Source: an uncultured Fibrobacteria bacterium
GTDB lineage: Bacteria > Fibrobacterota > Fibrobacteria > UBA11236
DNA: 64,000 nucleotides
Direction of reading: 5' to 3'
Assembly (NCBI GenBank): GCA_963716395.1
Contig: OY970309.1
Location: 1,566,485 to 1,630,484, forward strand
In this document: positions 8,799 through 63,917 of the stretch, piece after piece
How positions within the stretch are numbered: the first letter of the stretch is position 1
How the letters are laid out: each line of letters starts with the position of its first letter
Notes under the pieces: model-generated
What the model saw: only the letters and a program-made list of their open reading frames with translations
Database searches by the model: none
What the model was told of the DNA's origin: nothing
Program-made: the position numbers and the translations under genes

Positions 8799-8831
8799 AA
8801 CGCGCGGCCGCATTCCCGGGATTGTGCGATA

Positions 8832-10193: not shown

Positions 10194-10219
10194 ATTGTGA
10201 ATACCATTTGGGCTTTTCT

Positions 10220-25528: not shown

Positions 25529-27070
<1,542 letters not shown>

Positions 27071-27450: not shown

Positions 27451-30424
<2,974 letters not shown>

Positions 30425-30651: not shown

Positions 30652-30768
<117 letters not shown>

Positions 30769-30785
30769 GTTATTTCAAAAAAAAT

Positions 30786-43260: not shown

Positions 43261-43336
43261 TCCTCCCCCTCTTTATATCGGCCGCGGTGAACGAATGCTG
43301 TTGCGGGCTAAAGCCGCCGGCCGCCGAAAATGCGGG

Positions 43337-44302: not shown

Positions 44303-44387
44303 GGGTTCTCATCGCAAAATGTACTCGCATCCCCTGGTGAAATCGCTGGGAAGGGCACGCGCCTTTTGATATAGTTTTTCGGGTAGT

Positions 44388-45011: not shown

Positions 45012-45035
45012 AGCCCCGCCGGAAGATGCCCGGCG

Positions 45036-46208
45036 TCAGAGAAAATCCATCAAGGTGTGCTGGATCGATTGCGCACCCATCTGCAGGGTGGCGGTGAACA
45101 CCGATTGCTGCAAGGCCAACTGGCTGGTGGCCGCGGCAAAATCCACGTCTTCGAGATTGGACTGCTGATCGGTCAGATTGGTGTTCTGCGTGGCGCCGCG
45201 GTTTTGCGCGGCGGTCAATGCGTTGACGCGCGCTCCGTTTTGCGCCTGCGCCGCCAAATTGCGGTTCAGCGCCGCGCTCAGGGGGTCGACGCTGTCCTCG
45301 ATCTGGGTCGAATTGTTGTTGTTGAGACCTGCCAGCAAGTTAATCACGGCGGCAAAGGTGTTGCCTTGCGCATCTGATCCCGAACCGTATGCGTCGCTGG
45401 CCGTGGTGTTGATTTGCGCCGTTTGGTTCTGTGCGACCGAGCGGTTGATGGCGCCGTCGAGATCGGCCTCGTTGCGGCGAATCCAGCTGAAGCCGACCTG
45501 CAAATTGCCGCCGCCCACGGCGGCCAGGGCGGCCGTGCCCGGCGGCAGGAAGGTGATGGTGCCCTTGACGTAATCGACGGTGTAATCCGTGCCTTCCTGG
45601 AGCCCGTTGATGCTCAAGGTTCCCGGAATGACATCGTAGGCGTTGGCCGCCCCTGAAGGCGAATCGGCCGAATCGGTGACCTTGGTGTCGACGAGCTGGA
45701 TGGGCTGCCCGATTGTTCCGGCGGTGAGTTGGGCAGCGGTGATTTGCGCCGAACCATCTTGCTCGGTGAAAGGGGGAGCCTGGGTGTTGGTGCCCGAAAA
45801 CACGTAATCCCCCTGATACGTGGTGTTGGCCACGGCGACCATCTGATCGAGATTGCTGCGCACTTGCTGAGCAATCGACGCCCGGTTCAAGGCCGTCAGG
45901 GTGCCGGTGGCGCCTTGCAGGGCCAGTTGCTGGGTGTTTTGAATCAGCTGGTTATTGCCGTTCAGGGTGGTGTCGATCGTCGCCAGATACGCGCTGCCGT
46001 CGCTGATGTTGCGGGTGTATTGGGTGTTCTGCGCCAGTTGGGTGCGCACCTGCAAATCTTCGGCCGCGCCCACGGGATCGTCCGAAGGTTTATTGATGCG
46101 CTTGCCGGTGGAAAGCTGCTGCTGCAGATTCATGATCTTGGCGTAGTTGAGTTGAATCTCCTGCAAGATGTCAGTCGTGGCTTGCCCGAAAGTAACGCGC
46201 GAGGTCAT
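45036..46208 (-). CDS. flgL: Flagellar hook-associated protein 3
   Basis: Flagellin-like N-terminus (TSRVTFGQATTDILQEIQLNYAKIMNLQQQLSTGKRINKPSDDP) and C-terminus. ATG 46208 with AAAGGA RBS. Confidence 0.85.
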   Translation of the reverse strand: MTSRVTFGQATTDILQEIQLNYAKIMNLQQQLSTGKRINKPSDDPVGAAEDLQVRTQLAQNTQYTRNISDGSAYLATIDTTLNGNNQLIQNTQQLALQGATGTLTALNRASIAQQVRSNLDQMVAVANTTYQGDYVFSGTNTQAPPFTEQDGSAQITAAQLTAGTIGQPIQLVDTKVTDSADSPSGAANAYDVIPGTLSINGLQEGTDYTVDYVKGTITFLPPGTAALAAVGGGNLQVGFSWIRRNEADLDGAINRSVAQNQTAQINTTASDAYGSGSDAQGNTFAAVINLLAGLNNNNSTQIEDSVDPLSAALNRNLAAQAQNGARVNALTAAQNRGATQNTNLTDQQSNLEDVDFAAATSQLALQQSVFTATLQMGAQSIQHTLMDFL

Positions 46209-46222
46209 GGGGAAATCCTTTC

Positions 46223-47905
46223 TCACATGTTCATCAGCACATCGAGCATGGACTGAACCGTGGTGACGATGCGGGCCGAAGCCTGGTACGAGTTTTGGTA
46301 CTTGATGAGGTTGGTCATTTCCTCGTCGAGCGAAACCCCCGAGACGGATGTTTGCTCCTGTTGGAGCTGGGTCACGAGATTGTTTTGGGTTTGCAGGCCG
46401 TTGGTGCTTTGGGTGCGCGCCGCGCCGAGATCGCCCACGACCGACGAATAGTAGTCGGAGAAGGTTTGGGTGGCGTTGCCGCTGGAATCGGGCGCCATGG
46501 AATTCTGCTGGGCCAACTGCGAAATCGCCAGGGCGTTCGAGCCGTCGCCGACGCCGGGAAAACCGTTTTGCGCATAGCGCAGGTTGACGGTGATGTTGTC
46601 GCCCGCGGCGAATTTATTGTAATTGAGAAAGGTGATGGTGCCCTGCGCATAGTCGACGATGTAGTCCTTGCCCGCGCCTTCCTGCAAGGTTTGTCCGTTG
46701 CTGTCGAGGGTAATCTGCACGCTACCATTCACCAGATAGCGGTAATTGGGATCGATGGTTTTCAGATCCAAGGTGGGCGCGGTTTGGGCCGGAATGCCGC
46801 CGGCCGGACTCACGGTCGCCGACGCCGTGGTGCCGCCCGACGCGGCGGCGATATTGTTGGGATCGGCCAGCACCGCGTCCGACAGGCTGATGGTGCCGGC
46901 GGTGGTGTCGTTGGGATTGAAAAAATCGATGCCGGTATCCTGGTTCATATTGAAGCCGGTTTCGTGCAGGGCGTTCACACTTTGCACCAGACCTTTCGCC
47001 AGCGAGTCGAGTTTGTCCTGATACGACGGAATGATGGTTTGTTCGACGTCGAGGATGCCTTTGAGTTGACCGGTCGCCGGCTGCACCACCTGTTTGTTGC
47101 TCTGCAGGCGGACTCCGAAAGTGGGTTGCTGGGTGCCATCGGCTTGCGTGACCGTGGTCCCATAGGTTTCGAGCTGTTGATAACTGGACGGACCCACCAT
47201 CAGCACACCGCCCGAGGTGATGGAAACGCGCCCCTGCGCGTCCTCGGTGGTGGTCACGTCCATAAGCTGCGACAACTGGGTCACCAACTGGTTGCGTTGA
47301 TCGCGGCTGTCGTTGGCGTTGCCGTTCGGTTGCGCCTCTTCGGAGGAGATGGTTTTGTTCAGCGCCGAGATCTGCTGCATCAGGTTGTTGGCCTGGGTGA
47401 CCGTGTCTCCCAGCACGCCCTGCTGTTGGCTTTGGTATTGCTGCAGCCCCTGGGTCAAGCCGTGCAAGTTGTCGGTCAGAGTTCCGGCCGCGGCGCTCAG
47501 GGCTTCGCGCGTCGACAAATCGCCGGGATTGTTGGCCAAATCCTGCCACGCGCTGAAGAAACTGTTGAGATTGTCATTCAGGCTTCCGTTCTGCGGTTCG
47601 TTAAACAGATTTTCCACCTGCCCCAAGGCCGCGTCGACCTGGGTGTAATATCCCTGCTGCCCGGATTGGCTCTGGATTTGTTGATCGAGGAAAGCATCGC
47701 GGATGCGCGTGATATCGGCCACGTCGACACCCATGCCCATTTCGCCGTAGGTGCCATCGGGCCGGCTGAGCGGTTGGAGATCGATCTGCTTGCGCGAATA
47801 CCCTTCGGTGTTGGCGTTCGAGATATTCTGCCCGGTGACGTCGATGGCGGTTTGCGAGGCATTGAGCCCGGTCAACGCCACGCTCAGGGAACTGAACAGC
47901 GACAT
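46223..47905 (-). CDS. flgK: Flagellar hook-associated protein 1
   Basis: MSLFSSLSVALTGLNASQTAIDVTGQNISNANTEGYSRKQ is the canonical FlgK N-terminus. C-terminal ...LIKYQNSYQASARIVTTVQSMLDVLMN. Confidence 0.9.
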   Translation of the reverse strand: MSLFSSLSVALTGLNASQTAIDVTGQNISNANTEGYSRKQIDLQPLSRPDGTYGEMGMGVDVADITRIRDAFLDQQIQSQSGQQGYYTQVDAALGQVENLFNEPQNGSLNDNLNSFFSAWQDLANNPGDLSTREALSAAAGTLTDNLHGLTQGLQQYQSQQQGVLGDTVTQANNLMQQISALNKTISSEEAQPNGNANDSRDQRNQLVTQLSQLMDVTTTEDAQGRVSITSGGVLMVGPSSYQQLETYGTTVTQADGTQQPTFGVRLQSNKQVVQPATGQLKGILDVEQTIIPSYQDKLDSLAKGLVQSVNALHETGFNMNQDTGIDFFNPNDTTAGTISLSDAVLADPNNIAAASGGTTASATVSPAGGIPAQTAPTLDLKTIDPNYRYLVNGSVQITLDSNGQTLQEGAGKDYIVDYAQGTITFLNYNKFAAGDNITVNLRYAQNGFPGVGDGSNALAISQLAQQNSMAPDSSGNATQTFSDYYSSVVGDLGAARTQSTNGLQTQNNLVTQLQQEQTSVSGVSLDEEMTNLIKYQNSYQASARIVTTVQSMLDVLMNM

Positions 47906-47908
47906 GGC

Positions 47909-48505
47909 TCAGGCCTTGCGGTTCACCAGACTGCGCAATTGACGGCGGTGCAATTGCGATTGACCCTGCCGCGTATACAGGCGGTGGCGCTCGGCCGGGC
48001 TGCGTCCCGCCACGCTGGTGATGGCCGACAAGGTGGCGGCCACCAGGCGCTGACCGTTCTCGGCCAGAGCCGTGTTGATGCGCGCCGTATCCTGCGCTTC
48101 GCGCAAGAGCGGCCGCAGGGCGTCGCGCGCCGCCAGCAGACGGCGGGCCGCTTCCGCTTCGAGGTGCGGAACCAGCTCTTCGCATTTGGCCGATGGTTTC
48201 ACAGCCGGCCGCGTGAACCAGCCTTCGGTGGGACTGCGGCGATACAGGCCGGCTTTTTCCAGGATCGCCGCCACCCAGGCTTCGCGGTCGACGTCGAGTT
48301 GCAACAGCCGCGCCAGCACGCCGTCGATGGCGGCGTTGGCTTCGGCGAGATGCGCCATCGCGCCATGAATTAAAGCGTGACGTTGGTCGCGGAGCAAAAC
48401 AAGGTAGTCGCGGTAGGCTTCGGTTTGCATTTCGAGATTGCGCGCTAGGGCGTGGCCGGGATTTTTTTCCGGCTCCGGAACGCGACGGTGCGGCACGGTG
48501 ATCAT
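47909..48505 (-). CDS. Putative FlgN-like flagellar export chaperone
   Basis: Helical ~190-aa protein immediately upstream of flgK. Position and size are consistent with FlgN. Weak sequence signature. Confidence 0.5.
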   Translation of the reverse strand: MITVPHRRVPEPEKNPGHALARNLEMQTEAYRDYLVLLRDQRHALIHGAMAHLAEANAAIDGVLARLLQLDVDREAWVAAILEKAGLYRRSPTEGWFTRPAVKPSAKCEELVPHLEAEAARRLLAARDALRPLLREAQDTARINTALAENGQRLVAATLSAITSVAGRSPAERHRLYTRQGQSQLHRRQLRSLVNRKA

Positions 48506-49383
48506 GGCGAATCTCCTTGCGCAACGTGGTTGCGCATTTGCAGCACACGGCTGACATAATCCTGGGTTTCGGGATAGGGCGGGATGCCGCCGAAGCGATC
48601 GACGGTCGCAGGCCCGGCATTGTAACCGGCCAGGGCCAGGCCTTCGTTGCCGTGGTAGCGGTCGAGCAGGGTGCGCAGGTAGCGCGCCCCGCCCATGACG
48701 TTCTGGAGGGGATCGAAGGGGTTCGCCACCCCCATCGCCGCCGAGGTCGTATCGGTCAATTGCATCAAGCCTTTGGCGCCTTTGGAAGACACGGCGGCGG
48801 GGTCACCCGCCGATTCGGCATGGATGACGCTGCGTAACAAATCGGCCGGCACGTCGTATTGCTGCGACGCTGCCTGCACCAGCGGATTCAATTGCGCGGG
48901 TGGCAGCGCCGCGCCTCCCGAGGATGGGACCGCAGGCGTCGGCGCGCCTTTGAGTCCGGCGATATCGGTCGGCGTCAAGGTGCGTCCACTTTGCCGCAAG
49001 GAGCGATAAATTTCCGCGGCCAGCGAATTTGAAGTGCCGTTCTGGGCGGCGGTTAATCCCGCGAGTCCCGAGGTGAGCGGCGAACTCGCTGGTGCGGCCG
49101 CGACATCTTGATCGAACATGTCGGTGAACATGTTGCGCGCAAACGAGGGTTGGGTCAGGTCGCTGTGGTCCACGGTTTGGCGCATCGACTTGTACAGTTG
49201 GGTGAGAAACATGGTTTGAAAATCGAGACTGGTTTTCCAGCGCTGCATTTCCGCGGCCGACGATCCCGCCGCGGCCTTGGGGCCGGCGTTTGCCGCCGGA
49301 GATGTCGGCGGGTGCGAGGCCAGCGCTGCTTCGGCTTGCAAAAGATTCAGGCTCTGTAGGCCGGAGGCATCGGGTATGGGCAT
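48502..49383 (-). CDS. flgJ: FlgJ-like rod-assembly protein: N-terminal rod-binding domain fused to lytic transglycosylase (SLT) domain
   Basis: Rod-binding-like segment (FQTMFLTQLYKSMRQT...FTDMFDQ). C-terminal SLT motifs (ESAGDPAAVSSKGAKGLMQLTDTT...LALAGYNAGPATV). ATG 49383 assumed. Confidence 0.7.
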   Translation of the reverse strand: MPIPDASGLQSLNLLQAEAALASHPPTSPAANAGPKAAAGSSAAEMQRWKTSLDFQTMFLTQLYKSMRQTVDHSDLTQPSFARNMFTDMFDQDVAAAPASSPLTSGLAGLTAAQNGTSNSLAAEIYRSLRQSGRTLTPTDIAGLKGAPTPAVPSSGGAALPPAQLNPLVQAASQQYDVPADLLRSVIHAESAGDPAAVSSKGAKGLMQLTDTTSAAMGVANPFDPLQNVMGGARYLRTLLDRYHGNEGLALAGYNAGPATVDRFGGIPPYPETQDYVSRVLQMRNHVAQGDSP

Positions 49384-49641
49384 GGCGGACTCGGGTTGAA
49401 ATTTCCCTTGAACGTTGCCAGACGCAAACCCTATGCCACGCGCCCGTTTCTGCAACGCAGCCGAATTCGGCGCATGCCGCCGATATGCCGTTTCCATTCC
49501 TGCCGGGACCAGCAATTTTTTCCACCCCTGAGTGGGTAGGCGCGGGACGAAAATCGGGGTAAAATCAAAAAACCTTATGGCTTTTGGGTTTCGATCCGAT
49601 ATTCGGAAAGAGAAGGAGCTTGCGTGTTTTTTGCATCGGGT

Positions 49642-51165: not shown

Positions 51166-52761
51166 TTAATGCTCCATGGTGGGGGGGCGCAAGGGATTGG
51201 CGGTACCATCGTCGGTCTGCACCGGCGTGGCGGTCGCCGGCGTGGCGGCGGGCGTCGCCGCAGCGGCTGCGGGATTCGCACCCGGCGCAGCGCCCGTTTC
51301 GCCGGCTTCGGGGGCCGCATTTCCATAAACACCGGGATCGTTCCGGTCGGTGTTCGCCGACGTCGCCGAGGCCGTGGTACTGACCTCGCCGTTGCTCACG
51401 ATATGCGGTGTGACGAATACGATGAGATCGCGCTTGGTGGTCTGATGGGATTTGTGTTTGAACAGCCAGCCGAGAATGGGAATGTCCTTCAGCAGGGGAA
51501 TGCCGGTTTCGACATCGGTTTCTTCTTTGGTGGTGAGTCCCGCAATCACCACGGTTTCGCCGTCGTTGACCAATACCGTGGTTTTGGCGTTTTCTTTCTC
51601 GAGAATCACTCCGGCCTGCGCGTCCACCCGATAGGAGTTTTTTTCGGGTTCGAGGTCGAGCAGGATGTGTCCGTCCCCGGTCACATGCGGCGTCACGGTG
51701 AGCGAGGTTCCCGCGTCTTCCAACTGGATGGCCTGACGGCCATTGACGTCCAGCACCTTCACCGGCACCTCTTCGCCCATGAAGATCCTGGCTTCGGTAT
51801 TGTCGACCGTGGTGATTTGCGGCTTGGCGAGAATCTCGCCGCGTGATTCACTGAGCAGATCGGCCACGGCCACGGCCAAATGGGTGTTGAGCAGGCCGAA
51901 GGCGAATTGCGATGTGGCTCCGGTCACACCGCCTACGCCGCTGCTGGTGGTGGTGCTGGAGGCCGTTCCCCCGGACGTCGAGGATTGGGAATTGGCGGTG
52001 ATGCCGCCGGGATTGCTGGTTCCCACGGCATTGAAATTGCCTTTCAGCGAAGGATCGATTTTTCCCGGAGTGTTGAGCAGGGCTCCCACATGCCCTTGGC
52101 CGAATTGCCAATCCACCCCCATCGATTGCAGGCCATCGGCGTCGACTTCGATCAATTGCGCCTGGATATTCACCTCGGGAGTGGGCACGTCGAGTTCGTC
52201 GATAGCCGCGCGGATTTCCCGGATGTTCTGGCGGGTGTCGAACACCAGGAAAGCATTGTTGCGCTCCACGTAGTTCACGCGCCCGCGCACCGATAAAAGC
52301 CCCTTGACCGACTCCAGCAGATCGCTTCCCTTGGCGTTGCGCAGGTGGATCACGTCGCGCACCAACGGCGCCAGGGCCCCGGTTTGCTGCATGGCGGTGG
52401 CGTTTTCCACCGAGCTCTTGTTGAATTCGCTGATGGGCTGCACGTAGAGGTAATCCTTCTCCACCGTGTACTTCAGGTTGAACATCTGGCACAGAATGAT
52501 GAGCGCCTCCTGCCAGGTCTTGTCGGTGAGTTGCAGACTGGGGACGGTGCCGTTCACCGTCGGCGACACCACGATATCGACCCGGCCTGTGGCCGACAAG
52601 GCCTTGAAGGCCGAGCGCAAATCGGTGTTGGAAAAATTGAAGTTCTGGCGGAACTCCTGCGCATGCGAGGTCGAAAAGCTGGCGCCGAAGGCGGCGGAGT
52701 TCAGGGCCGTCAGCGTCGTGAACGCCATGATGGGGAAAAAACGCGCGTGCGAAAAGTTCAT
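51166..52761 (-). CDS. pilQ: Type IV pilus secretin
   Basis: Signal peptide, N0/N1-type region. C-terminal secretin core (...VVIAGLTTKEETDVETGIPLLKDIPILGWLFKHKSHQTTKRDLIVFVTPHIV). Confidence 0.85.
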   Translation of the reverse strand: MNFSHARFFPIMAFTTLTALNSAAFGASFSTSHAQEFRQNFNFSNTDLRSAFKALSATGRVDIVVSPTVNGTVPSLQLTDKTWQEALIILCQMFNLKYTVEKDYLYVQPISEFNKSSVENATAMQQTGALAPLVRDVIHLRNAKGSDLLESVKGLLSVRGRVNYVERNNAFLVFDTRQNIREIRAAIDELDVPTPEVNIQAQLIEVDADGLQSMGVDWQFGQGHVGALLNTPGKIDPSLKGNFNAVGTSNPGGITANSQSSTSGGTASSTTTSSGVGGVTGATSQFAFGLLNTHLAVAVADLLSESRGEILAKPQITTVDNTEARIFMGEEVPVKVLDVNGRQAIQLEDAGTSLTVTPHVTGDGHILLDLEPEKNSYRVDAQAGVILEKENAKTTVLVNDGETVVIAGLTTKEETDVETGIPLLKDIPILGWLFKHKSHQTTKRDLIVFVTPHIVSNGEVSTTASATSANTDRNDPGVYGNAAPEAGETGAAPGANPAAAAATPAATPATATPVQTDDGTANPLRPPTMEH

Positions 52762-54590
52762 TTTCCAGCCCTTTCCTGAGAGGGGACCAATTTCAAAGTG
52801 TAGGAGCGCGTGATCCCGAATTCCGTGAGATCAAAGGTGACGGCGTCCCGGGTGATGCGCGCCACGTGTCCGTTGTGAACCGGATCGCCCGGGCGCACGG
52901 TGAATGAAAGGTTCGATTCCTTGATGTTTTCCAGCACGGCCATGGGCCCCTCTCCCTGCCACACAATGCCGACCACCTTCATTTCGTCGATGTCGATGCC
53001 GTTGTCGGGCGAGCCCTGTTCGACCGGAATGAACGGGTCGCGGCGCCCGTAGCTGTTGTAGGTCACGGCCTCGCTGCTTGGAGGGGCGAGATTCACTTTT
53101 TCCGAATCCGCCGCTTTTTGTTCGTCGTCGAGCGCCGTCGGCGGAATCTCCATCTTGGCGCCGGGGGCGGCCAAGGAGAGCTTCGGTTCTTCCGTTTTTT
53201 TGCTGTGGACGGCCGTCGCGGGCGGGGCCGGGGGGGCGGGCGGCTCTTCGGCGCGGGGCTTTCCGGCGGGCGCTACGGCGGCTTGCGCGGCCGTCTGGCG
53301 CGCGTGGATCTTGGCTTGCAGCGCGCGCAACTGGGCCGCCGATAATTCATCCGGGTAGGCGGCCGCCGCGGCCGCAACATAACCGGTATCGTTGTCCGCG
53401 ACCGCGCGCAGGTACCCTGCATGTGACCCTAGCCGCCGCAGATTTTCTCCCGCCTGAAGCCAGCGTCGCACGGCGACGGATTTGCCCGGGCCGGCCAAAA
53501 GCGGGGCCGAATCGCGCACCACCACCATGGGTTTGCCGGCTGGGGCCAAGGTGAAGATATGGCTGCTGGTAAGGGCATGGGCGTGTTTTTGATCCAGAGT
53601 CGCGCCTTCGGCGAAAGCCGAGGGCAAGGGGCCGACCGGAACACGGGGCGTTACCGGATGTCGGCTTTTCCAGGAAAAGGCCGGCGTGCCCGGCGGCAGA
53701 GGGATCCGCAGCCGAACGTTGCTTTTTTCCGCGGTCGGCTGCAGCGATTGCGCCGAATCCAGCAACAGGACGGCCACTAAATCCGAGTCGTGTTCCTGCC
53801 AGAAAAGCCCGCGCACGCGGCCCAGCGGTCCGAGGTCGAATTTGGCCTCGGGCGGGGCGGCCTCGGTGTGGTGAAAGATCAGTCCCAAGGCGGGCGCCGT
53901 ACCCGAAGGATTTTCCACCCGGTAATCCGGTGTTTGGCCTTGGAATTGAAAACTCACCTCTTCCCATGACCCGGCAGCCGTGATGCGCACCTCACGCAAT
54001 TTTCCGGGCGAGGCGGCTGGTGCCGGGGTGGCCGGGGCCGAAGCCTCCGCTGCCGGCGCGGAAGAAGCCGTGGGTGTTACGGGAGGGGCGGCGCTTCCCT
54101 GGGCCAGCGACCAGGCGGCGAGGGAAGCAGCGGATTTGGGGGCTTTGCCCAAGAAGATGCGCAAGATCGAACCGGTGGGAATCAGGCTCCAGTCGGCGGT
54201 GGCGGGCAACCGCTTGAGCGAAAATTCCACACCCAGAAAATCCTTTCCGCTGGGGGAGCGGAAGCGTTGGAGGGTGACGCCGGCGACGGGGGCCTGCGAA
54301 GGCAAGGGTGTGAAGCCCATCGGCAGCGACGTTTCGGTTTCGAGAAAAGAAAACAAGGCGGTCTTGCGGGCCGAGTCGATTTTCTGGAAATAAGGGGGAA
54401 AGGAAAAAGTCTGACCCTCTTCGGGAGGCGCGAAGTGGATTTCGGCCGCGATCTTTCCTGCAAACTTCAAGGTGACATCGGTGATTTGGGGCGAAGCCCA
54501 AAGCGGCGCCAAGGCACAGGCCAGTACGCCCAAGGCCCGGGCACAACCTGTGCGGAGGGGGAGGAGTCGATGCGAAAAGCCGCGCAGCAT
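52758..54590 (-). CDS. Enlarged PilP-like pilus assembly protein (AMIN-like N-domain + SH3b-like domain + Ala/Pro linkers + C-terminal PilP domain)
   Basis: C-terminus DPFIPVEQG...MKVVGIVWQGEGPMAVLE...FTVRPGDPV...ARITRDAVTF matches PilP. Middle VVRDSAPLLAGPGKSVAVRRWLQAGENLRRLGSHAGYLRAVADNDTGYV is SH3b-like. 610 aa versus ~180 for typical PilP. Confidence 0.65.
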   Translation of the reverse strand: MLRGFSHRLLPLRTGCARALGVLACALAPLWASPQITDVTLKFAGKIAAEIHFAPPEEGQTFSFPPYFQKIDSARKTALFSFLETETSLPMGFTPLPSQAPVAGVTLQRFRSPSGKDFLGVEFSLKRLPATADWSLIPTGSILRIFLGKAPKSAASLAAWSLAQGSAAPPVTPTASSAPAAEASAPATPAPAASPGKLREVRITAAGSWEEVSFQFQGQTPDYRVENPSGTAPALGLIFHHTEAAPPEAKFDLGPLGRVRGLFWQEHDSDLVAVLLLDSAQSLQPTAEKSNVRLRIPLPPGTPAFSWKSRHPVTPRVPVGPLPSAFAEGATLDQKHAHALTSSHIFTLAPAGKPMVVVRDSAPLLAGPGKSVAVRRWLQAGENLRRLGSHAGYLRAVADNDTGYVAAAAAAYPDELSAAQLRALQAKIHARQTAAQAAVAPAGKPRAEEPPAPPAPPATAVHSKKTEEPKLSLAAPGAKMEIPPTALDDEQKAADSEKVNLAPPSSEAVTYNSYGRRDPFIPVEQGSPDNGIDIDEMKVVGIVWQGEGPMAVLENIKESNLSFTVRPGDPVHNGHVARITRDAVTFDLTEFGITRSYTLKLVPSQERAGK

Positions 54591-54603
54591 GGGCTGGGTC
54601 TGC

Positions 54604-55212
54604 CTATTTCTTGGAGGTGAAGGTGGTCAGTTCGAAGGTGGCCGTGATGGTTTTCGGAATTTCGCCGTGATCGTGCGCGTCGGACACCACCTTGTCGAGG
54701 TCGGGGGCTTTTTCGATTTCCAATTTGTTGATGGCCGTGGGGTAGCGGAAGTTGGCGATATCGGCCAGCAAACTCCCCAACCCGTGGTAGCTGCTGCTCA
54801 AGGTGACCGAATAATGGTTCTCCTTGTAAAACTCTTTTTCTTCCGATTGCAGCGGGAGGAATTTGGTGGGGATGGTCTGCGAACGGCGGGTGACGGCCGT
54901 GAGATCGATGAGCCGTTTAGGAATGACTTCGCGGTCGGGAAACATCTCTTGCAGCCGCGCGAATTCCTGGTTGGCCACTTCGATTTCGGCTTCGAGATCC
55001 TTGAGGCGTTGTTTTTGCGCCAGGATTTGCCGCAGTTCACCCCTTTTGGTTTCGATTTGCTGATCGAACTGCTTCGATTGCTGGGCATAGTCATGGTATT
55101 GCTGCGTGTAGAACAGATAGCCCAATCCGCCGACGGCCGCGAGGCAGAGGCCGAAAAAAATCCACAGCTTGGCTTGCAAGGTGAGCAAGGCGTTGAGGTC
55201 GAACTTTTTCAC
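54604..55212 (-). CDS. pilO: Type IV pilus assembly protein PilO
   Basis: N-terminal TM, coiled coil. Gene order pilM-N-O-P-Q. Confidence 0.8.
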   Translation of the reverse strand: MKKFDLNALLTLQAKLWIFFGLCLAAVGGLGYLFYTQQYHDYAQQSKQFDQQIETKRGELRQILAQKQRLKDLEAEIEVANQEFARLQEMFPDREVIPKRLIDLTAVTRRSQTIPTKFLPLQSEEKEFYKENHYSVTLSSSYHGLGSLLADIANFRYPTAINKLEIEKAPDLDKVVSDAHDHGEIPKTITATFELTTFTSKK

Positions 55213-55829
55213 AGCACCTTGCCCTTCACGGCCCCGTTGGCTTCGACCGGCATCCCGGAATTGGGATTCATCTCTATTTTCAAGGTGAAGGAGAAATAGC
55301 TTTGATCCGCGTCATGCTTGAATTCGATGGAAGCCAGTGACACCTGCTGGAAGCAGTCGAGCTTTTCCAACTCCATCATGTATTCCGCCACTTCGGGGAA
55401 GACGAAGGTTTTCCCATCGATTTCCAGGCCTTCCTCGTCGGCACCACTCTGCTTGATGGACTCCAGCCAGGTGTTGAGCGGCAACGATTTGGATAGCCCT
55501 TCAAGCACCCCGATCCACTTGCGTTTGTTCACGCTGATGCTTTTCAGCGAGGTATTCTTGGCGTTCTTTTCGTCGCGGATTTTTTCCAATTCGCGGATTT
55601 TCTGTTCCACGAAATTGTTTTGGGCGATTTCCGCCTGTACCTGGGTCAAAGCCGATTTTTTGGTGGCGAGGTTGGCCTCGATGAACTGGCGGCCGGCCAC
55701 GAACGCCAAGCAGGCTGCGATCACAATCACGGTTCCCGTCAACGGGCGCCAGTCGAGCAGAAAGGAATAATCCTTCCGGACGACGCGGTATTCAATGGGA
55801 AGCAGGTTGACTTGGATGTAGTCGCGCAT
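55209..55829 (-). CDS. pilN: Type IV pilus assembly protein PilN
   Basis: MRDYIQVNLLPIEYR carries the conserved INLLP motif. Confidence 0.85.
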   Translation of the reverse strand: MRDYIQVNLLPIEYRVVRKDYSFLLDWRPLTGTVIVIAACLAFVAGRQFIEANLATKKSALTQVQAEIAQNNFVEQKIRELEKIRDEKNAKNTSLKSISVNKRKWIGVLEGLSKSLPLNTWLESIKQSGADEEGLEIDGKTFVFPEVAEYMMELEKLDCFQQVSLASIEFKHDADQSYFSFTLKIEMNPNSGMPVEANGAVKGKVL

Positions 55830-55830
55830 G

Positions 55831-56913
55831 TCACACCTTGCGCAAGGCCAGGCCCGTGGCCACGGTCAGAATGGTCGAGATATTTTCGGGAATCGGGCCG
55901 CTGAAGCGCTTCTCGTCATAGGCGATGTGGGCCAGCGGGTTGGCGATTTCCACTTCGACGTTGTGGCGCTTGGCCAGAATGCCCGCCAGGTTGCGGATGG
56001 TGGCGCCGCCGCCGCACAGCACCATTTTTTCCACCTTGAGATTGTTCTCGGAAGACTGGAAATAGCCGAAGGCCAAATCGATTCCCACCGAAAGCTCTTC
56101 GGCCGAGAATTCGATGCTGCGGTTGACCACCGACTGCACCTGGGGTTCGACGTTCTTGCCGCGCAGGATGGTCGAGGCCTCTTCGCGATCGACCTTCAGG
56201 TTTTTCATCAGGGTCTTGAGAAAGAAGTCGCAGGCTGTGGCGATGTCGCGCGTGGAATGGTAGGTGCCGTTCTTCAGAAAGGTGAGGTTGGTCAGATGTT
56301 CGCCGATATTGATGACGCTGACCACCTTGTTGGCATCTTCTTCGGACGAGGCCAGCAGATAGGCGTTGGTGACCGCGAAAGCGTCGACGTCGATGACCAG
56401 GGGCCGCAATCCGGCTTCGTACAAGAGGTCGATGTACGACTGCATCACCTGGTTCTTGGCGGCCACCAGCAGCACTTCCATCTCTCCCGACTCGGGGGTT
56501 TTCGACAGCACCTTGTAATCGAGCGTGATGTTGTCGACATCGAAGGGGCTGCGTTGCCCGGCTTCCATGAGGATTTGCTCCTCGTCTGATTCGCCGGAAT
56601 CGATTTTCAGGTGGATGCGGTCGGCGATCACGCCGTACGACCACGAAAGCGAAAGCACCACATCTTTGATTTTTCCCGAAGGATCGGTGCGGTGCACCAA
56701 GGTCGTCAGCGAATGCAACAATTCGTCGCGATTCTTGATTTCGCCGCCCGACAAGGTGTCGGGTTTGAGCACGTGAATACCGGCCCCGAGCAGAACGGGT
56801 CCGGCTTCGCGATGGGCGATCCGCGCAATCTTGATGGAGTAATTGCCAATATCAATGCCCACCGTGGTGGGTTCGCTTTGTATCAGGCGGAGAAGGGACT
56901 CCCGAATGCTCAC
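55831..56913 (-). CDS. pilM: Type IV pilus assembly ATPase-fold protein PilM
   Basis: Actin-like fold motifs (VGIDIGNYSIKIA; VIDVDAFAV). 360 aa. Confidence 0.9.
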   Translation of the reverse strand: MSIRESLLRLIQSEPTTVGIDIGNYSIKIARIAHREAGPVLLGAGIHVLKPDTLSGGEIKNRDELLHSLTTLVHRTDPSGKIKDVVLSLSWSYGVIADRIHLKIDSGESDEEQILMEAGQRSPFDVDNITLDYKVLSKTPESGEMEVLLVAAKNQVMQSYIDLLYEAGLRPLVIDVDAFAVTNAYLLASSEEDANKVVSVINIGEHLTNLTFLKNGTYHSTRDIATACDFFLKTLMKNLKVDREEASTILRGKNVEPQVQSVVNRSIEFSAEELSVGIDLAFGYFQSSENNLKVEKMVLCGGGATIRNLAGILAKRHNVEVEIANPLAHIAYDEKRFSGPIPENISTILTVATGLALRKV

Positions 56914-57018
56914 GCAACGGCCCTCATCTTCAAAGGTTTTTGAGGAATTTCAACTTGGCCATTATAGCACCACGTCCGCCGGGAAGCAACCTTTGCCGCT
57001 GCATATTTCCAGGCGGGG

Positions 57019-58119
57019 TCAAGCCGGAAAAGGCGCGCCGCGATCCTGGGCGCCCAGGCGCTGCTTCTCGAACACATAGCGCACGATGCTTTCCTGCTGG
57101 GCGGTTTCCAGGCCCATGAATTTGAGATGGTGTTCGAAGTCTTCGCGACCGGGTTTAGACACCGCCGCCACGCGCATCACTTCGGCCCGCAGTTCGCGGA
57201 AGGTGGCGCCGCCGGGCAGATCGAAATTCAACGACAGCTTGTGCCCTTTGGGCACGGAAGTGGGCAGCCGCGCGCAGGCTCCTCCTCCGGACAAATCGGC
57301 CAGACGGCCCTCCACCAGGAGGCCGGCGGGCAAAAGGCGATCGTCGGGGCCGGGATGCTCCGGCCCGCTCACGACCAGAATGCGGCAGGGCAAATTGACC
57401 TCGACGCGCACCCAATTGCGCAATTGTTTGCGTTCCAGGTTGCGCGTGTGGGCCAACACCAGAATGCGATGGGCTGGGCGCACGGCCACCAGCGTGGTGC
57501 GAATGCCGTATTCCGCGTCACCGGGCCGCGTCAACGCGAGCGCGAGTTCGACGCCGGCCCGGATGTTTTCGGGCAGGCGATCGAAAGCCGCCACATGCCA
57601 CTCGCGTTCGGACACGAATTGAATCTGGCCTTTGAGAGCGGTGCCCGACATCGTCCACGCAACGGCAAGTCCGTCTCCCAGTTGGCGCGTGCTGCTGAGC
57701 GGGATTTCCGCCGGTAATTGCAGAAAGCCGAGCTTGAAACGGATGCTGCGCAAAACGCCGTACAGCGCCGGATCGCGAGCTAGGCGGTCTTTCTCTTCGG
57801 CCAAAAAAGCTTCGACGGCGTCTTCGAAAACATAGGGGGAATCGAAAACCATGTCGGCGCTCATCACTTCGCCGCTGCGCACCACGGCTTTGAGCAGGGA
57901 GTTCTCAGTCGCCGACAATTCTTTTTGGGTGGCGCACTCTTCAAAGTACCGCCAGCCGATTTGCACCTCTTCTTTGTGGTGGCGGGCCGAGCGCAGAATT
58001 TCCAGGAACACCAGCCATCCCATGGCTCCGATGAGCAGAAATCCGGCTATCACCACGGCCAATGGATTCATGCGTCCGAAGCCGCTGCCCATGGCGTGAA
58101 GCAACTCTTGCACCGACAT
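57019..58119 (-). CDS. Membrane-anchored PilZ-domain (c-di-GMP binding) protein, YcgR-like two-domain architecture
   Basis: N-terminal TM. C-terminal PilZ motifs RNWVR (RxxxR) and DLSGGGACA (DxSxGG). Confidence 0.7.
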   Translation of the reverse strand: MSVQELLHAMGSGFGRMNPLAVVIAGFLLIGAMGWLVFLEILRSARHHKEEVQIGWRYFEECATQKELSATENSLLKAVVRSGEVMSADMVFDSPYVFEDAVEAFLAEEKDRLARDPALYGVLRSIRFKLGFLQLPAEIPLSSTRQLGDGLAVAWTMSGTALKGQIQFVSEREWHVAAFDRLPENIRAGVELALALTRPGDAEYGIRTTLVAVRPAHRILVLAHTRNLERKQLRNWVRVEVNLPCRILVVSGPEHPGPDDRLLPAGLLVEGRLADLSGGGACARLPTSVPKGHKLSLNFDLPGGATFRELRAEVMRVAAVSKPGREDFEHHLKFMGLETAQQESIVRYVFEKQRLGAQDRGAPFPA

Positions 58120-58209: not shown

Positions 58210-59094
58210 ATGCCGGCCACCGACAACCAACTCAAGGCCGTGGTGCAGAAAATTACCGATCTGCCCACCTTGCCGGCATTGTTCGTCACCCTCACCCGGT
58301 TGATTCAAGACCCGCATACCTCGGCCGAACAGTTGGGCCGCGCCCTGTCGACCGACATGACCTTGGTGTCGAAAGTGCTGAAGCTGGTGAACTCGGCTTT
58401 TTACGGATTTCCCGGACGCATCGGCACGGTGTCGCAGGCCATCGTCATTCTGGGATTCAGCTCCATCCGCAATATCGTGCTGACCACGTCGGTGATGAAG
58501 ATGTGGGAACATCCCAAATTGCAGAAGCAATTCGATCTCGACGGCTTCTGGCGGCATTCGCTGCAAACCGCGGCGCTATCCAAAGCCCTGGCTATGGAAC
58601 GGGCCATCCCGTTTATGGAAGAGCTTTTCATCGCGGGGTTGCTGCACGATATCGGGCGCATCGTGCTCAGCGGCAAGTTGCCCGAAGATTTTGAAAAAGT
58701 CCTCGATTATCGCGCCCGGCGCCATGTCAGCCTGCTTGAAGCCGAGAAGAAGGTATTGGGGCTGACGCATGCCGAACTCGGCGCATTTCTGGCGAAGAAG
58801 TGGAATTTGCCCGCGCCCTTGGTGGAAATCATCCGCTGCCACCATGCTCCGGAGTTGGCGGATACGAGTCCGGGAGCGCCGCTGTCCGGAGACGCTTCGG
58901 CCTCGCTGGCGGTGGTGCGTCTGGCCGATGCGTTGTCGCGCGTGGTGACCGAGGGAGAATTACCCCCGGGTTATGTGGAAAAGGTCGCGCCGGGTTTGTG
59001 GGAGCAAGTCGGATTTGAATCGCTTCCCGGGGGCGGTTTTCCGGATCGGGCGCGCGAGGAAATCGGCAAGGCTTTGGCCTTCCTCAGCGTTTAA
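58210..59094 (+). CDS. HDOD-domain signalling protein
   Basis: LPTLPALFVTLTRLIQDPHTSAEQLGRALSTDMTLVSKVLKLVNSAFYGF...GLLHDIGRIVL is the HDOD pattern. Confidence 0.85.
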   Translation: MPATDNQLKAVVQKITDLPTLPALFVTLTRLIQDPHTSAEQLGRALSTDMTLVSKVLKLVNSAFYGFPGRIGTVSQAIVILGFSSIRNIVLTTSVMKMWEHPKLQKQFDLDGFWRHSLQTAALSKALAMERAIPFMEELFIAGLLHDIGRIVLSGKLPEDFEKVLDYRARRHVSLLEAEKKVLGLTHAELGAFLAKKWNLPAPLVEIIRCHHAPELADTSPGAPLSGDASASLAVVRLADALSRVVTEGELPPGYVEKVAPGLWEQVGFESLPGGGFPDRAREEIGKALAFLSV

Positions 59095-59160
59095 GCGTAT
59101 ACTCGGAAGCGCAGGCATTGCCGGCACCGGCGGCGGCATCCGGGGAAGCCGGGAGATTTC

Positions 59161-59451
59161 ATGACGGTCGAATACAAAAAGTCGAACAAGAAGCGCCTGA
59201 CCATCGAGCAATTGCAAGACGTGTCGCTTCCCGTGAGTTTGGAATTGGGAAAGAAGCGCATGCGCGTGCGCGAGCTCTTGGCCCTATCGCGCGGCTCGAT
59301 TGTCAAACTCGAACGGCTGGCCGGCGAGCCCGTCGACCTGGTGATCAACGGACGCGCCATGGCCAAAGGCGAAGTGGCGGTGATCGACGAGAATTTCGCC
59401 GTGCGCCTGGTGACTTTGCTTTCTCCCGAAGAGCGTCTGAAGCTCTTGTAG
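59161..59451 (+). CDS. FliN/SpoA-domain protein (flagellar switch C-ring family, stand-alone 96 aa)
   Basis: LQDVSLPVSLELGKKRMRVRELLALSRGSIVKLERLAGEPVDLVINGRAMAKGEVAVIDENFAVRLVTL matches the FliN C-terminal/SpoA domain. Confidence 0.7.
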   Translation: MTVEYKKSNKKRLTIEQLQDVSLPVSLELGKKRMRVRELLALSRGSIVKLERLAGEPVDLVINGRAMAKGEVAVIDENFAVRLVTLLSPEERLKLL

Positions 59452-59872: not shown

Positions 59873-60850
59873 TTATAAAGCCGGGTGGTATTTGGCCAGC
59901 GAAGGCGCAAGAGTGCGCACCAGGCGCAACAGTTCGGCCTCCAATGCGGGGCCGCCTTCGGTTTCGCGCACCGAGGCCAGCGGCAAAAACAGGGGGGAGT
60001 GGAACAGAGTTCCCAGCGGAACCGGATTCTTGCGGCTGAATACGGCCTGCACAAAGGTCATGACCTCTTTCTGGCCGCGTTCCGCGTCTTGAACCCGGCC
60101 TGCGCGATGCGCCTCCACCAACCGCAGAAACAGGCGGGCCGCCTCGGGAATGTTTCCCGTGGCGGTGATCACGCCGTGTCCGCCCAGTTCCAGCAGGGCG
60201 AACACGCCGTCGTCTTCGCCGCTCACCACCGCGAAGTCGGAGTTTTTCGTGGCTTCGATCACGGCGCGGGTATCCTCGCGGTAACGTCCGGGGCTGCGGA
60301 AATCCACCGCCTGTTTGAGCCCGATGATGTTGCGGTCTTCGGCCAGCCGCAGCAGGGTGTCGGGTTCGAGATAGCTGGCGGTGCGTCCGGGAACATTGTA
60401 AATCACGATTTTGGCGCCGGTTTCGCGCGCCAGGGTTTCGTAATGCGCCGCCAATCCGGCCTGGGGCGGATTGTTGTAATACCCGGTCACACACAGGCAG
60501 GCCACCGGCCCCGTGGTCCGGAACAATTCCTGAATGAGATCCACCGACTCGCGGGTGCAATTCGATCCCGCTCCGGCCACAATGGGCACGCGGCCGTCGA
60601 CGTATTCGGCGGCGAAGCGGATGAAATCGAGATGCTGCGCGGTGCTGACCGTGGGGCTTTGCCCCGTGGTGCCCACCGGCACCAGACCGTCGACGCCGGC
60701 GGCGATGAGGTCGTCGATCATGCGGCGCGCTTTTTCATAGTCGATGGAGTTGCGCAGGCGCTTGGGATCGTCGTCGCGCAAGGGCGTGAACAGCGCCGGC
60801 CATACGCCGCGCAATTCCGCCGCCGCGGCGATGCTTTTCACGGAAGACAT
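59873..60850 (-). CDS. DapA-family aldolase (4-hydroxy-tetrahydrodipicolinate synthase family)
   Basis: GVDGLVPVGTTGQSPTVS...; schiff-base lysine context IVIYNVPGRT...; 325 aa. Confidence 0.85.
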   Translation of the reverse strand: MSSVKSIAAAAELRGVWPALFTPLRDDDPKRLRNSIDYEKARRMIDDLIAAGVDGLVPVGTTGQSPTVSTAQHLDFIRFAAEYVDGRVPIVAGAGSNCTRESVDLIQELFRTTGPVACLCVTGYYNNPPQAGLAAHYETLARETGAKIVIYNVPGRTASYLEPDTLLRLAEDRNIIGLKQAVDFRSPGRYREDTRAVIEATKNSDFAVVSGEDDGVFALLELGGHGVITATGNIPEAARLFLRLVEAHRAGRVQDAERGQKEVMTFVQAVFSRKNPVPLGTLFHSPLFLPLASVRETEGGPALEAELLRLVRTLAPSLAKYHPAL

Positions 60851-60924: not shown

Positions 60925-62280
60925 TCAACCCGCCTGCATCAGTTCGGGATGTTGTTCGAGAAACTTGGTGCTGTAGGTGCCGCGCGCGAAGCGGGGATGG
61001 CGGAGGACGCGCTTGAGCAGGGGAATGGTGGTTTTGACGCCCTCAATGACGAATTCGTCGAGGGCGCGCAGCATGCGGGCGATGGCCTGTTCGCGGTCGG
61101 GCGCATGCACGATCAGTTTGGCGATCAGACTGTCGTAATTCGGCGGCACAATATATCCGGCATAGCAGTGGGTGTCGATGCGCACGCCCAGGCCGCCCGG
61201 CAAATGGAAGTCGGTGATGAGGCCCGGGCTGGGTTTGAAGTCGTCGAAGGGATCTTCGGCGTTGATGCGGCATTCGATGGCATGCCCCTCGAAGCGCACG
61301 TCTTTCTGGGCAAAGGGGAGTTTTTCGCCCGCCGCCGCCAGAATTTGCAGCCGCACCAAATCCAACCCCGTCACATATTCGGTCACCGGATGTTCCACCT
61401 GGATGCGCGTGTTCATTTCCATGAAGTAGAACGAACCGTCTTGGTCATAGAGAAATTCGATGGTGCCCGCGTTGGAATAGCCCGCCTCCAAGGCTCCGCG
61501 CGCCGCGGTTTCGCCCATACGCCGGCGGATTTCCGGAGTGACGGCGGGGCTGGGGCTTTCTTCGATGAGCTTTTGATGCCGGCGCTGCACCGAGCAGTCG
61601 CGCTCGCCCAGGTACACCATGTTGCCGTGCGCATCGCCCAGCAGTTGAATCTCGACATGGCGCGGCTCGGTGAAATAGCGTTCGAGATACAAATCGCCGC
61701 GGCCGAAACAGGCCTGGGCCTCGGAAGCGGCCACGGCGTAGATTTTGTTCAGCTCCTCCAAATCCTTGGCCACGCGCATGCCGCGCCCGCCGCCGCCGGC
61801 GGCGGCTTTGACGATGACCGGATAGCCCACGATTTGCGCGGCCGCCGCGGCCTCGGCCAAGGTGGCCACCAGGCCTTCGGACCCGGGAATGGTGGGCACG
61901 CCCGATTTGCGCATGGTGGCCTTGGCCTCGGCTTTGTCGCCCATGCTGCGGATGACTTCGGGCGAAGGGCCGATGAACACCAGCCGGTTGTCGCGGCACA
62001 CTTCGGCGAACTTGGCGTTCTCCGAGAGAAAGCCGTAGCCGGGATGCACGGCGTCGGCGTTGGTCAATTCGGCTGCGGCCAAAATCTGCTTGGTGTTGAG
62101 ATAGCTCTGTTTGCTGTTGGGCGGGCCGATGCAGATGTCCTCGTCGGCGAAATGCACGTGCAGCGAATGGGTGTCGGCGGTGGAATGCACCGCCACGGTG
62201 GAAATGCCCATTTCTTTGCAGGTGCGAATGACCCGCAGGGCGATTTCACCGCGGTTGGCGATCAGGATTTTTTTAAACAC
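60925..62280 (-). CDS. accC: Acetyl-CoA carboxylase biotin carboxylase subunit
   Basis: [26 protein letters not shown]...[17 protein letters not shown]... is near-universal AccC sequence. Confidence 0.95.
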
Positions 62281-63373
62281 CGGTGATCCAACTCCGATCG
62301 GAAGTGCCTTCGACGCCGCGCACCTTCAATTCGAAATCTTCGGGATTGGTGGCACTGCGCATGGCGGTTTCATAACTGATTTGTTCGTCGTGGTACAGGC
62401 GCAAAATCGACTGGTCGAACGATTGCGACCCGTACTGGGTGTAGCCTTCGCGGATGCAGGCGTCGAGCAGATGGGTGTTTTCGGGCTGCGTGAGAATGTC
62501 GCGCACGGTGGCGTTGTTGACCAGAATTTCACAGGCCGGTACGCGGCTGCGTCCGTCTTTACGCACCAAAAGGCGCAGCGTGATCACCGCCACCAAAGTG
62601 CTCGAAAGGGTGAGCCGAACCTGTTGGTGCTGGTGGGGCGGAAAGAACGAGACGATGCGGTTGATGGTTTCCACCGCGTTCATGGTGTGCAAGGTCGACA
62701 GCACCAGGTGGCCGGTGTCGGCTGCGGTCAGGGCGATGGACATGGTTTCCATGTCGCGGATTTCGCCCAACAGGAGCACGTCGGGATCCTGGCGGAAGGC
62801 GGCGCGCAGCGCGGTCGTGAACGAGTCGGTATCCGAGTTCACCTCGCGCTGCGAGATGATGCTTTTCTTGTCGCGGTAGAGAAATTCGATGGGGTCTTCG
62901 ATGGTGATGATATTCGAGGCGGTGTTCTCGTTGATGTGGTCGATCATCGAAGCCAAGGTGGTGCTCTTGCCCGATCCCGTGGTGCCGGTGACCAAAATGA
63001 GGCCGCGCCGGCGCAGCGAGAGATCGCGGATGACCTCGGGCAGGCCCAATTGCTCGAAGGCCGGCACCACGCTGAGGATGGCGCGCAGCGAAAGCGCCGG
63101 GGTGCCGCGCTGCTTGAAGGCGTTGACGCGGAAGCGGCCCACGTTGCGGATGCCGATGGCGAAATCGAGTTCATGCTGCTGGTCGAAGCGGGCCTTCTGG
63201 TTGCGGTCCATCACGTCGAGCAGGAATTGCTCCATCTCTTCGGTGGAGATGCGCTCGCTTTGCAGCCGGTACAGATCGCCGTTGATGCGAAAGGTGGGCG
63301 GCGATCCGACGCGCAGATGCAGATCCGACGCGTTGCGCAGCATCATTTCCTTGAGCAGGGTTTCCACGTTCAC
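62273..63373 (-). CDS. pilT: Type IV pilus retraction ATPase
   Basis: Walker [15 protein letters not shown]. Asp box, Walker B LLLGEIRD. His box. PilT-specific AIRNLIRE-like region ([13 protein letters not shown]). Confidence 0.9.
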
Positions 63374-63431
63374 GGGATACTCCTCCGGCGGCCGGGAAGG
63401 AGACGCACTTCCATCGGAGAGCCGGGCCGCC

Positions 63432-63917
63432 TCACGCCATGCGCACGCGGAACAGCACGGTGCCGTATTCCACCGGCGTTTCGCTGGGGGCGCATACCTC
63501 TTCGATGACCCCGGCCACGTCGGACTCGATTTCGTTCATGATTTTCATGGCTTCGATGATGCACAAAACCTGCCCCGGCTTGACCGGCGACCCCGCCTGC
63601 ACAAAGGGTTCGGCGCCGGGCGAGGGCGAGGCAAAGAAAGTGCCCACCATGGGTGAGGTGATTTCTTTGAGTTTGGGGTTGGGCTTTTCGCTCGTGGCAT
63701 GGGCTTCTTGGGCCGGGGCCGTCGGCGCGGCTATCGGGGCGGGCGCGGGCGTTGGGGCCGCCGCCATGGGTGCCGAAGCCAGCAGTCGATACGACTCTTT
63801 CTTGAGCACCACTTTCGACTTTTCGTCGCTGAAGCTGATTTCGGTGAGGCTGCTTTTATCCAGCAACTTGATCAGCTGGGACACGTCGGAAAGCTGCATG
63901 TTTCCCTTTCCGGACAT
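63432..63917 (-). CDS. accB: Biotin carboxyl carrier protein
   Basis: Pro/Ala linker. Biotinylation motif CIIEAMKIMNEIE. Confidence 0.9.
   Translation of the reverse strand: MSGKGNMQLSDVSQLIKLLDKSSLTEISFSDEKSKVVLKKESYRLLASAPMAAAPTPAPAPIAAPTAPAQEAHATSEKPNPKLKEITSPMVGTFFASPSPGAEPFVQAGSPVKPGQVLCIIEAMKIMNEIESDVAGVIEEVCAPSETPVEYGTVLFRVRMA

Follow-up and report, generated by a model that had tools for sequence, protein, structure and literature searches.

A PilT-family ATPase gene between accB and accC in a Fibrobacteria genome and in relatives from several phyla

In bacteria, accB and accC are usually adjacent, and accBC ranks among the most stable two-gene units. The canonical operon occurs in Escherichia coli, Bacillus subtilis and Pseudomonas aeruginosa, often in the order efp-accB-accC. 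A departure from this layout is described here for an uncultured Fibrobacteria bacterium, in a stretch of 64,000 nucleotides (nt) of contig OY970309.1 (assembly GCA_963716395.1, positions 1,566,485 to 1,630,484), hereafter the window. Three genes follow one another on its minus strand. The first, accB (63917-63432), encodes a biotin carboxyl carrier protein (BCCP) of 161 amino acids (aa). The second, pilT (63373-62273; GTG start), encodes a hexameric secretion ATPase of the PilT family with 366 aa that is assigned below to the PilT1 type. The third, accC (62280-60925; GTG start), encodes a biotin carboxylase of 451 aa. As in the canonical operon, AccB and AccC are ordinary orthologs encoded in the same order and on the same strand, and pepP and/or efp precede them in Gemmatimonadota and Krumholzibacteria. 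Unlike the canonical operon, the two cistrons are not directly adjacent here, being split by the 1101-nt (1.1-kb) gene of an unrelated ATPase.

The genes were identified with NCBIfam and Pfam profiles, and their coordinates were taken from a list of open reading frames (ORFs) and the sequence. AccB scores 153.7 bits against TIGR00531 (cutoff 115.2), matches PF00364 and carries the biotinyl-lysine motif EAMKIM of a BCCP (63537-63554, minus). AccC scores 714.3 bits against TIGR00514 (cutoff 626.5) and matches PF00289, PF02786 and PF02785, so that both proteins exceed their equivalog cutoffs. The AccC profile alignment begins at residue 1, which supports the GTG start. A sequence-only reading had placed pilT between accB and accC with an overlap of 8 nt at the second junction, and the ORF list, the sequence and the profile identities confirm this arrangement.

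The pilT stop codon TAA (62275-62273) falls inside the string GTGTTTAA (62273-62280, minus), which also holds the GTG start of accC; the pilT frame ends in ACC GGT GTT TAA and the accC frame begins with GTG TTT AAA. The overlap is therefore exactly 8 nt. A GGAG resembling a Shine-Dalgarno (SD) sequence lies 11 nt 5' of the accC start (62292-62295, minus), within the pilT codons that specify DRSW near the C-terminus. At the other junction, a spacer of 58 nt (63374-63431, minus) separates accB from pilT and contains an SD-like GGAGGAG (63380-63386, minus) 6 nt ahead of the pilT GTG. A consensus scan found no terminator or promoter at the accB-pilT or the pilT-accC junction, all consensus matches lying within genes and being about as many as shuffled sequence would give. 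The tight packing, the absence of such signals from the junctions and the SD-like GGAG in the pilT 3' end fit a shared transcript, as the sequence-only reading had suggested. With an ATPase gene between accB and accC, accC would be coupled to pilT instead of accB.

The 58-nt spacer is specific to the window: it measures 1-5 nt in most Fibrobacteria and, among the 15 nearest relatives, 1-9 nt in 12 and 36-42 nt in the other three. It also holds a GC-rich inverted repeat, GGCGGCC...GGCCGCC. A structured element in the spacer was considered and rejected because the predicted fold is no stabler than that of shuffled sequence (z = 0.95) and the spacer is absent from relatives.

The product of the middle gene is solidly assigned to the PilT family on its sequence features. 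Its match to TIGR01420 is full-length (residues 3-346 of 366) and scores 456.8 bits, above the cutoff of 319.1; PF00437 (T2SSE) matches at 168.7 bits. An alignment with the PilT structures of Aquifex and Thermus shows all four catalytic boxes along with the catalytic Lys, Glu and His. These are the Walker A motif GTTGSGKST (aa 130-138; 62960-62986), the Asp box (aa 155-164; 62882-62911), the Walker B motif (aa 196-207; 62753-62788) and the His box (aa 220-230; 62684-62716), all on the minus strand. The position of the AIRNLIRE motif, which is present in Aquifex PilT and Geobacter PilT4, is occupied by the degenerate TVRDILTQ (62486-62509, minus). Identity to Geobacter sulfurreducens PilT4 is 44%. 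Among solved structures, the closest relative is 5FL3, a Thermus thermophilus PilT (E = 1e-104; about 50% identity), which is also the best solved match for the PilTs of Gemmatimonadota and Geobacteraceae and has a degenerate VRELL-type motif in place of AIRNLIRE. Among close relatives, PilT is 83-85% conserved, compared with 79-81% for AccC, 57-64% for AccB and 61-66% for a nearby dapA-like protein. With conservation no lower than that of AccC, PilT is under strong purifying selection.

To follow the arrangement beyond the window, its PilT was scanned against one genome per GTDB species, giving 80 loci, onto which the window AccB, AccC and neighbouring proteins were mapped by tblastn before stops and starts were located. 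The same order recurs: in about 59 of 83 loci pilT has accB on one side and accC on the other, and in about 65 it adjoins one or both of them. In the two clades of Fibrobacteria nearest to the window, accB-pilT-accC is found in every labelled locus (L001-L024, plus the truncated L054). It is likewise found in all 15 Gemmatimonadota loci, in three unclassified metagenome-assembled genomes (MAGs) and in most Zixibacteria, including three Ignavibacteria-labelled loci that cluster with them. Two further loci, L055 and L056, share the order and are placed by protein search among Candidatus Krumholzibacteria and 'Latescibacteria'-labelled proteins. Three additional assemblies with independent gene calls and precomputed Pfam matches carry TPR-efp-accB-pilT-accC-ftsK-miaB, and a metagenome contig of the L016-L024 clade (L086) reads accA-x-TPR-accB-pilT-accC-FecR with gaps of 0-10 nt. 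Recurrence in dozens of independent assemblies puts the arrangement far beyond chance or artefact. A literature search found no description of pilT between accB and accC, and a wider one covering PilT paralogs yielded only the Geobacter study discussed below (PMC5065972). The best 120 Gemmatimonadota matches, all of them MAG or metagenome proteins, included no cultured carrier. In one Gemmatimonadota MAG (JANYLJ01), two contigs (L067 and L069) each carry pepP-efp-accB-pilT-accC, representing either a block duplication or a mixed-strain bin.

The junction between pilT and accC is conserved along with the gene order. It is tight (-8, -1, 0 or +2 nt) in 24 of 24 complete Fibrobacteria loci and in 15 of 15 Gemmatimonadota loci. 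L001-L015 have the identical 8-nt overlap GTGTTTAA; among L016-L024, six loci have a -1 nt junction (TGATG), two a junction of 0 nt and one a junction of +2 nt, and all Gemmatimonadota loci have -1 nt (TGATG). A junction alignment shows that a string resembling GACCGGAGCTGGATG is conserved in Fibrobacteria, where it encodes the PilT C-terminal DRSW(M/I) and supplies the SD-like GGAG. This GGAG lies within pilT codons, 11-13 nt 5' of the accC start, in 19 of the 24 Fibrobacteria loci and is replaced by GGAA, GAAG or nothing in L014, L015, L018, L022 and L024; a GGCGGAG is similarly placed in several Gemmatimonadota. In the Gemmatimonadota locus L059, pilT would also overlap the accB stop by 8 nt if a longer database start (P0241, 391 aa) is right. 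A stop/start overlap combined with an SD sequence inside the upstream gene, both conserved in relatives, is the geometry of translationally coupled cistrons, and it suggests that pilT and accC are so coupled.

What surrounds the three genes points to an older cluster. The genes 5' of accB are an M24 Xaa-Pro peptidase gene (pepP) and efp in Gemmatimonadota, a TPR protein gene and efp in Krumholzibacteria, pepP in Zixibacteria, and accA and a gene for a large TPR protein in the class of the window. Extended blocks read pepP-efp-accB-pilT-accC-ftsK and TPR-efp-accB-pilT-accC-ftsK. From these we infer an ancestral block of TPR-pepP-efp-accB-pilT-accC. As pepP-efp-accB-accC is a widespread housekeeping cluster, pilT was presumably inserted precisely at its accB/accC boundary. 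The unlinked Fibrobacterota (L025-L030 and a MAG labelled Fibrobacter sp.; Fibrobacter/Chitinivibrionales type) carry TPR-pepP-pilT-FecR instead. The unlinked and linked forms have TPR, pilT and FecR in common, which is most simply explained by a secondary loss of accB and accC from the pilT locus.

A neighbour-joining (NJ) tree of 86 PilT sequences (357 columns, 100 bootstraps), rooted on Aquifex PilT, agrees with such a history. All linked PilTs fall in one clade of the Fibrobacterota-Chlorobiota-Bacteroidota (FCB) group with 74/100 bootstrap support. The clade follows phylum labels, with Krumholzibacteria joining Gemmatimonadota, then Zixibacteria, then Fibrobacterota, and has the Fibrobacterota and two Zixibacteria that are unlinked nested within it. 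One ancient pilT insertion with later losses is thus the most parsimonious history on the sequences compared. The sequence-only reading had left room for an unusual rearrangement of this genome, and the tree points instead to an ancient, vertically inherited layout.

An assembly chimera, a recent rearrangement or a horizontally acquired insertion specific to this genome would also place a foreign gene between accB and accC. Nothing was found to favor such an origin, the only local oddity being the 58-nt spacer. Dozens of independent assemblies, made in different studies and representing different phyla, show the same order and junctions, GC content and GC at third codon positions (GC3) are uniform over accB, pilT and accC (GC3 of 0.78, 0.82 and 0.79), and the PilT tree follows taxonomy. 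Chimera and recent horizontal transfer are therefore rejected on composition and synteny, and the probability left to this explanation is negligible. In particular, a chimera at 62.27 or 63.4 kb, which the sequence-only reading had raised as a concern, is refuted because both junctions recur in independent MAGs from four phyla.

The reading favored here, with a probability of roughly 60%, is that accB-pilT-accC is a genuine ancient FCB operon whose accessory pilus ATPase is supplied constitutively and in step with growth, and which is retained through the coupling of accC to pilT. A PilT-family ATPase gene would have been inserted once into a (TPR)-pepP-efp-accB-accC cluster, exactly at the accB/accC junction. 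All three genes would then lie on one transcript, and ribosomes ending at the pilT stop would re-initiate at accC. The PilT1-type protein may be an accessory ATPase of the type IV pilus machine, active in retraction or pilus dynamics in the manner of Thermus PilT2. Because pilT rides an essential, growth-regulated operon, the protein would be made constitutively at a level tied to growth. If ribosome loading on accC depends on pilT, the insertion would be hard to remove and could persist for a long time without any biochemical link to acetyl-CoA carboxylase (ACC).

A machine for such an ATPase to act on appears to be present, as the window holds a complete pilus assembly set. The type IV pilus assembly cluster (51166-58119, minus; Pfam) includes a PilZ-domain gene about 2.8 kb 3' of accC (58119-57019, minus). 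This is followed by pilM (about 4 kb 3' of accC), pilN, pilO, a 610-aa ORF with no Pfam match (54590-52758, minus) and the pilQ secretin gene, together spanning 56913-51166 on the minus strand. Between accC and the cluster lie a divergent HDOD gene and a gene for a stand-alone FliN of 96 aa (58210-59451, plus).

The same lock-in of accC could also operate with no regulatory meaning at all. Under this explanation, a single insertion was kept as a frozen accident because precise excision would cripple the essential accC, and expression of PilT is untuned. The position of the accC SD sequence within pilT codons and the stop/start overlap are what would be expected, and the unlinked lineages moved accB and accC away without deleting pilT. 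Furthermore, housekeeping contexts differ by clade (accBC or recA-recX) and offer no single functional theme. Persistence over four phyla and strong purifying selection nonetheless imply that PilT is needed, and the order is kept in Zixibacteria and Krumholzibacteria despite non-overlapping junctions, for which lock-in is insufficient by itself. From sequence, a pure accident is considered rather unlikely, though a serious contender to regulatory coupling.

The FCB clade has as its sister group PilTs encoded in MAGs of Desulfobacterota, Bdellovibrionota and Acidobacteriota type. The union of the two, which places the window PilT with recA-linked PilTs and excludes the PilT4 type, is supported by 92 of 100 bootstraps in an NJ tree where GSU0146 (G. 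sulfurreducens PilT1) is represented by the context-defined L061. GSU0146 itself is absent from the alignment, and L061 is taken as its ortholog because it is labelled Geobacteraceae, has a recA/alaS context and is 53% identical to PilT4, in line with the published 52% (PMC5065972). Six of the seven sister-group PilTs (L053, L057, L058, L061, L063 and L078) lie in the order recA-pilT-(small ORF)-alaS, with pilT at about 6001-7150 in most. Geobacter PilT4 (5ZFQ, 6OJX) and Aquifex PilT fall outside the other 83 sequences in 100 of 100 bootstraps, and the window PilT fails to group with the proven retraction motors. With a sister clade at the recA locus, this PilT subfamily seems repeatedly to have split classic housekeeping pairs. 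Like the recA-linked PilTs, the accBC-linked PilTs are without a strict AIRNLIRE. In the loci examined, PilT1-type members lie outside pilus clusters and inside housekeeping operons, and the proximity to pilMNOPQ seen in the window is not conserved. In the Gemmatimonadota loci L059, L067 and L068, recA lies about 5 kb 3' of accC.

The 5FL3 structure is presumably Thermus PilT2 rather than PilT1. Thermus PilT2 has been described as a secondary motor acting on pili (PMC12393216). Unlike the linked PilTs, 5FL3 falls outside the clade uniting the FCB and recA-linked sequences in the NJ tree.

To our knowledge, Geobacter PilT1 is the only member of the clade to have been studied, and we know of no function assigned to it. 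In G. sulfurreducens, recA and recX enclose pilT1 (GSU0146), which shares a transcript with recA and differs from pilT4, the gene of the motor (Speers et al. 2016, PMC5065972). In that work, a P. aeruginosa pilT mutant was rescued only by Geobacter PilT3 and PilT4. In both Geobacter and the window, a PilT paralog sits inside a housekeeping pair away from pilus genes, and Geobacter pilT1 is co-transcribed with its upstream gene. The differences are the accB/accC host operon, the FCB rather than Desulfobacterota lineages and the overlapping downstream junction with an essential gene.

Alternatively, the PilT1-type ATPase might not be primarily a motor of pilus retraction and might act with, or regulate, ACC, membrane-lipid or envelope biogenesis, its position having been selected for co-expression and perhaps for physical interaction. 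The linkage is kept across four phyla with tight junctions, PilT is conserved as strongly as AccC, and the clade is without AIRNLIRE. Its members lie mostly outside pilus clusters, near recA/recX/alaS, rpoD-like and CCA-adding enzyme genes, and Geobacter PilT1 is not the pilus motor (PMC5065972). On the other hand, a PilT-like ATPase acting on ACC has no known biochemical precedent, and the occurrence of the same clade at recA-recX in Desulfobacterota-type genomes disfavors an ACC-specific function. Fibrobacter/Chitinivibrionales-type genomes keep pilT with TPR, pepP and FecR and have no accB or accC at the locus, Zixibacteria tolerate unrelated genes between pilT and accC, and Thermus PilT2, the closest relative to have been characterised, acts on pili (PMC12393216). 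A partnership with ACC is accordingly judged improbable. A more radical proposal is that the PilT1 type constitutes an ancient, distinct subfamily wedged in essential pairs (accB/accC and recA/recX), with a pilus-independent, growth-coupled function and a direct tie to ACC. It is something of a long shot; if true, the pilus-independent function might be, for example, to connect a membrane machine with lipid/envelope synthesis or with DNA transactions.

Several points weigh against reading the block as an ancient operon with an accessory pilus ATPase. The window PilT is without AIRNLIRE, Gemmatimonadota have AVADNIRD at that position, and the motif is degenerate in the whole clade. Judged by gene context, the sister clade matches Geobacter PilT1, a paralog that does not serve as the pilus motor and is absent from those reported to rescue the P. 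aeruginosa mutant (PMC5065972). What suggests a pilus role for the linked PilT is its homology. In tblastn searches, the window pilM, pilN, pilO, pilQ, PilZ, HDOD and FliN had no match in any related locus, and no second T2SSE ATPase (PilB or PilT) is found within the 64-kb window. Co-transcription of accB, pilT and accC is likewise suggested by their geometry. Given the 74% NJ support for FCB monophyly, pilT may have been inserted more than once. Finally, the junctions of Zixibacteria and Krumholzibacteria are looser, with gaps of 31-877 nt and, once in Zixibacteria, 3.8 kb, and in Zixibacteria either an antisense NYN-domain gene or a small TRASH zinc-ribbon ORF lies between pilT and accC. 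A block as loose as that of Zixibacteria indicates that coupling is not obligatory.

Two claims of the sequence-only reading are weakened by these observations. It had named the protein the pilus retraction ATPase, a label that exceeds the evidence and stands as unproven, because TVRDILTQ replaces AIRNLIRE and the protein clusters with the Geobacter-type paralog of recA-pilT1-recX and not with PilT4. It had also suggested that twitching motility shares regulation with fatty-acid synthesis, and for a PilT1-type protein without AIRNLIRE this conclusion likewise goes too far.

The occurrence of pilT in housekeeping operons is itself already known from recA-pilT1-recX and from the pilT-ftsA-ftsZ operon of Clostridium perfringens (PMC6958937); what stands out here is the phylogenetic depth and the splitting of accB and accC, one of the most conserved gene pairs. 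Unlike the present case, the C. perfringens pilT is the first gene of its operon, encodes a proven retraction ATPase and splits no conserved pair. That arrangement is conserved in only a few Clostridium species, whereas accB-pilT-accC spans several phyla. In terms of comparative genomics the signal is unusually strong: at least four phyla keep an unrelated gene inside accBC, and translation of accC seems to depend on it. So far, nothing in it points to a new mechanism. The block offers a handle on orphan PilT paralogs and, as efp-accB-pilT-accC, a synteny marker for a subset of FCB-superphylum lineages. It also calls for caution in annotation, since a protein labelled PilT is not always the motor of twitching motility.

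The Zixibacteria blocks contain further genes, namely the antisense NYN gene, the TRASH-type zinc-ribbon mini-ORF, SurA, an amino-acid permease and a protein of no assigned family. A pilus or lipid theme for them was considered and rejected because their identities give no functional theme. The antisense NYN-domain (PF01936) gene characterizes one subclade (L031 7199-7771, L040 7178-7744 and L043 7182-7811, all minus), where the operon must be either interrupted or read through. In some Zixibacteria, a conserved ORF of 57-60 aa lies just 5' of accC (L036 7374-7556, L038 5593-5766 and L042 7514-7687). Its product has a TRASH-type zinc ribbon (PF08394, E = 4e-7) with a CxxC...C pattern, and its tail is very acidic.

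Two other protein families recur beside the pilT block. A TPR-repeat protein of 330-1430 aa is encoded 5' of it in Fibrobacterota and Krumholzibacteria, with or without accB and accC (for example L003 2411-5470, L086 5437-7506, L081 3805-4803 and L084 973-4908). A FecR-domain protein is encoded 3' of it in Fibrobacterota (L019, L027, L030 and L084-L086). The two proteins may work together with this PilT. In the window, accC is followed by a dapA-like gene of the dihydrodipicolinate synthase family (59873-60850, minus), which scores 203.9 bits against TIGR00674, just below the cutoff of 206.15. Its adjacency to accC is limited to L002-L015 and is not seen in L001 or in other clades, so the gene is probably outside the core block.

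Beyond the pilus cluster, flagellar genes are present at 41254-48505 (minus), comprising flgN, flgK, a flgL-like gene with a flagellin N-domain and a gene for a FliK-like hook-length protein, and an SLT/Rod-binding FlgJ-like gene is present at 48502-49515. With both flagellar and pilus genes in the window, the Fibrobacteria-labelled organism appears to be flagellated as well as piliated. The window also contains a complete rRNA operon on the plus strand (16S 25528-27064, 23S 27457-30428 and 5S 30654-30769) and a tRNA at 3031-3103 (minus). Several large ORFs of 795, 387, 394, 779 and 522 aa (3207-6714, 8501-12418 and 15087-16655) have high GC3 and no Pfam match at E <= 1e-6.

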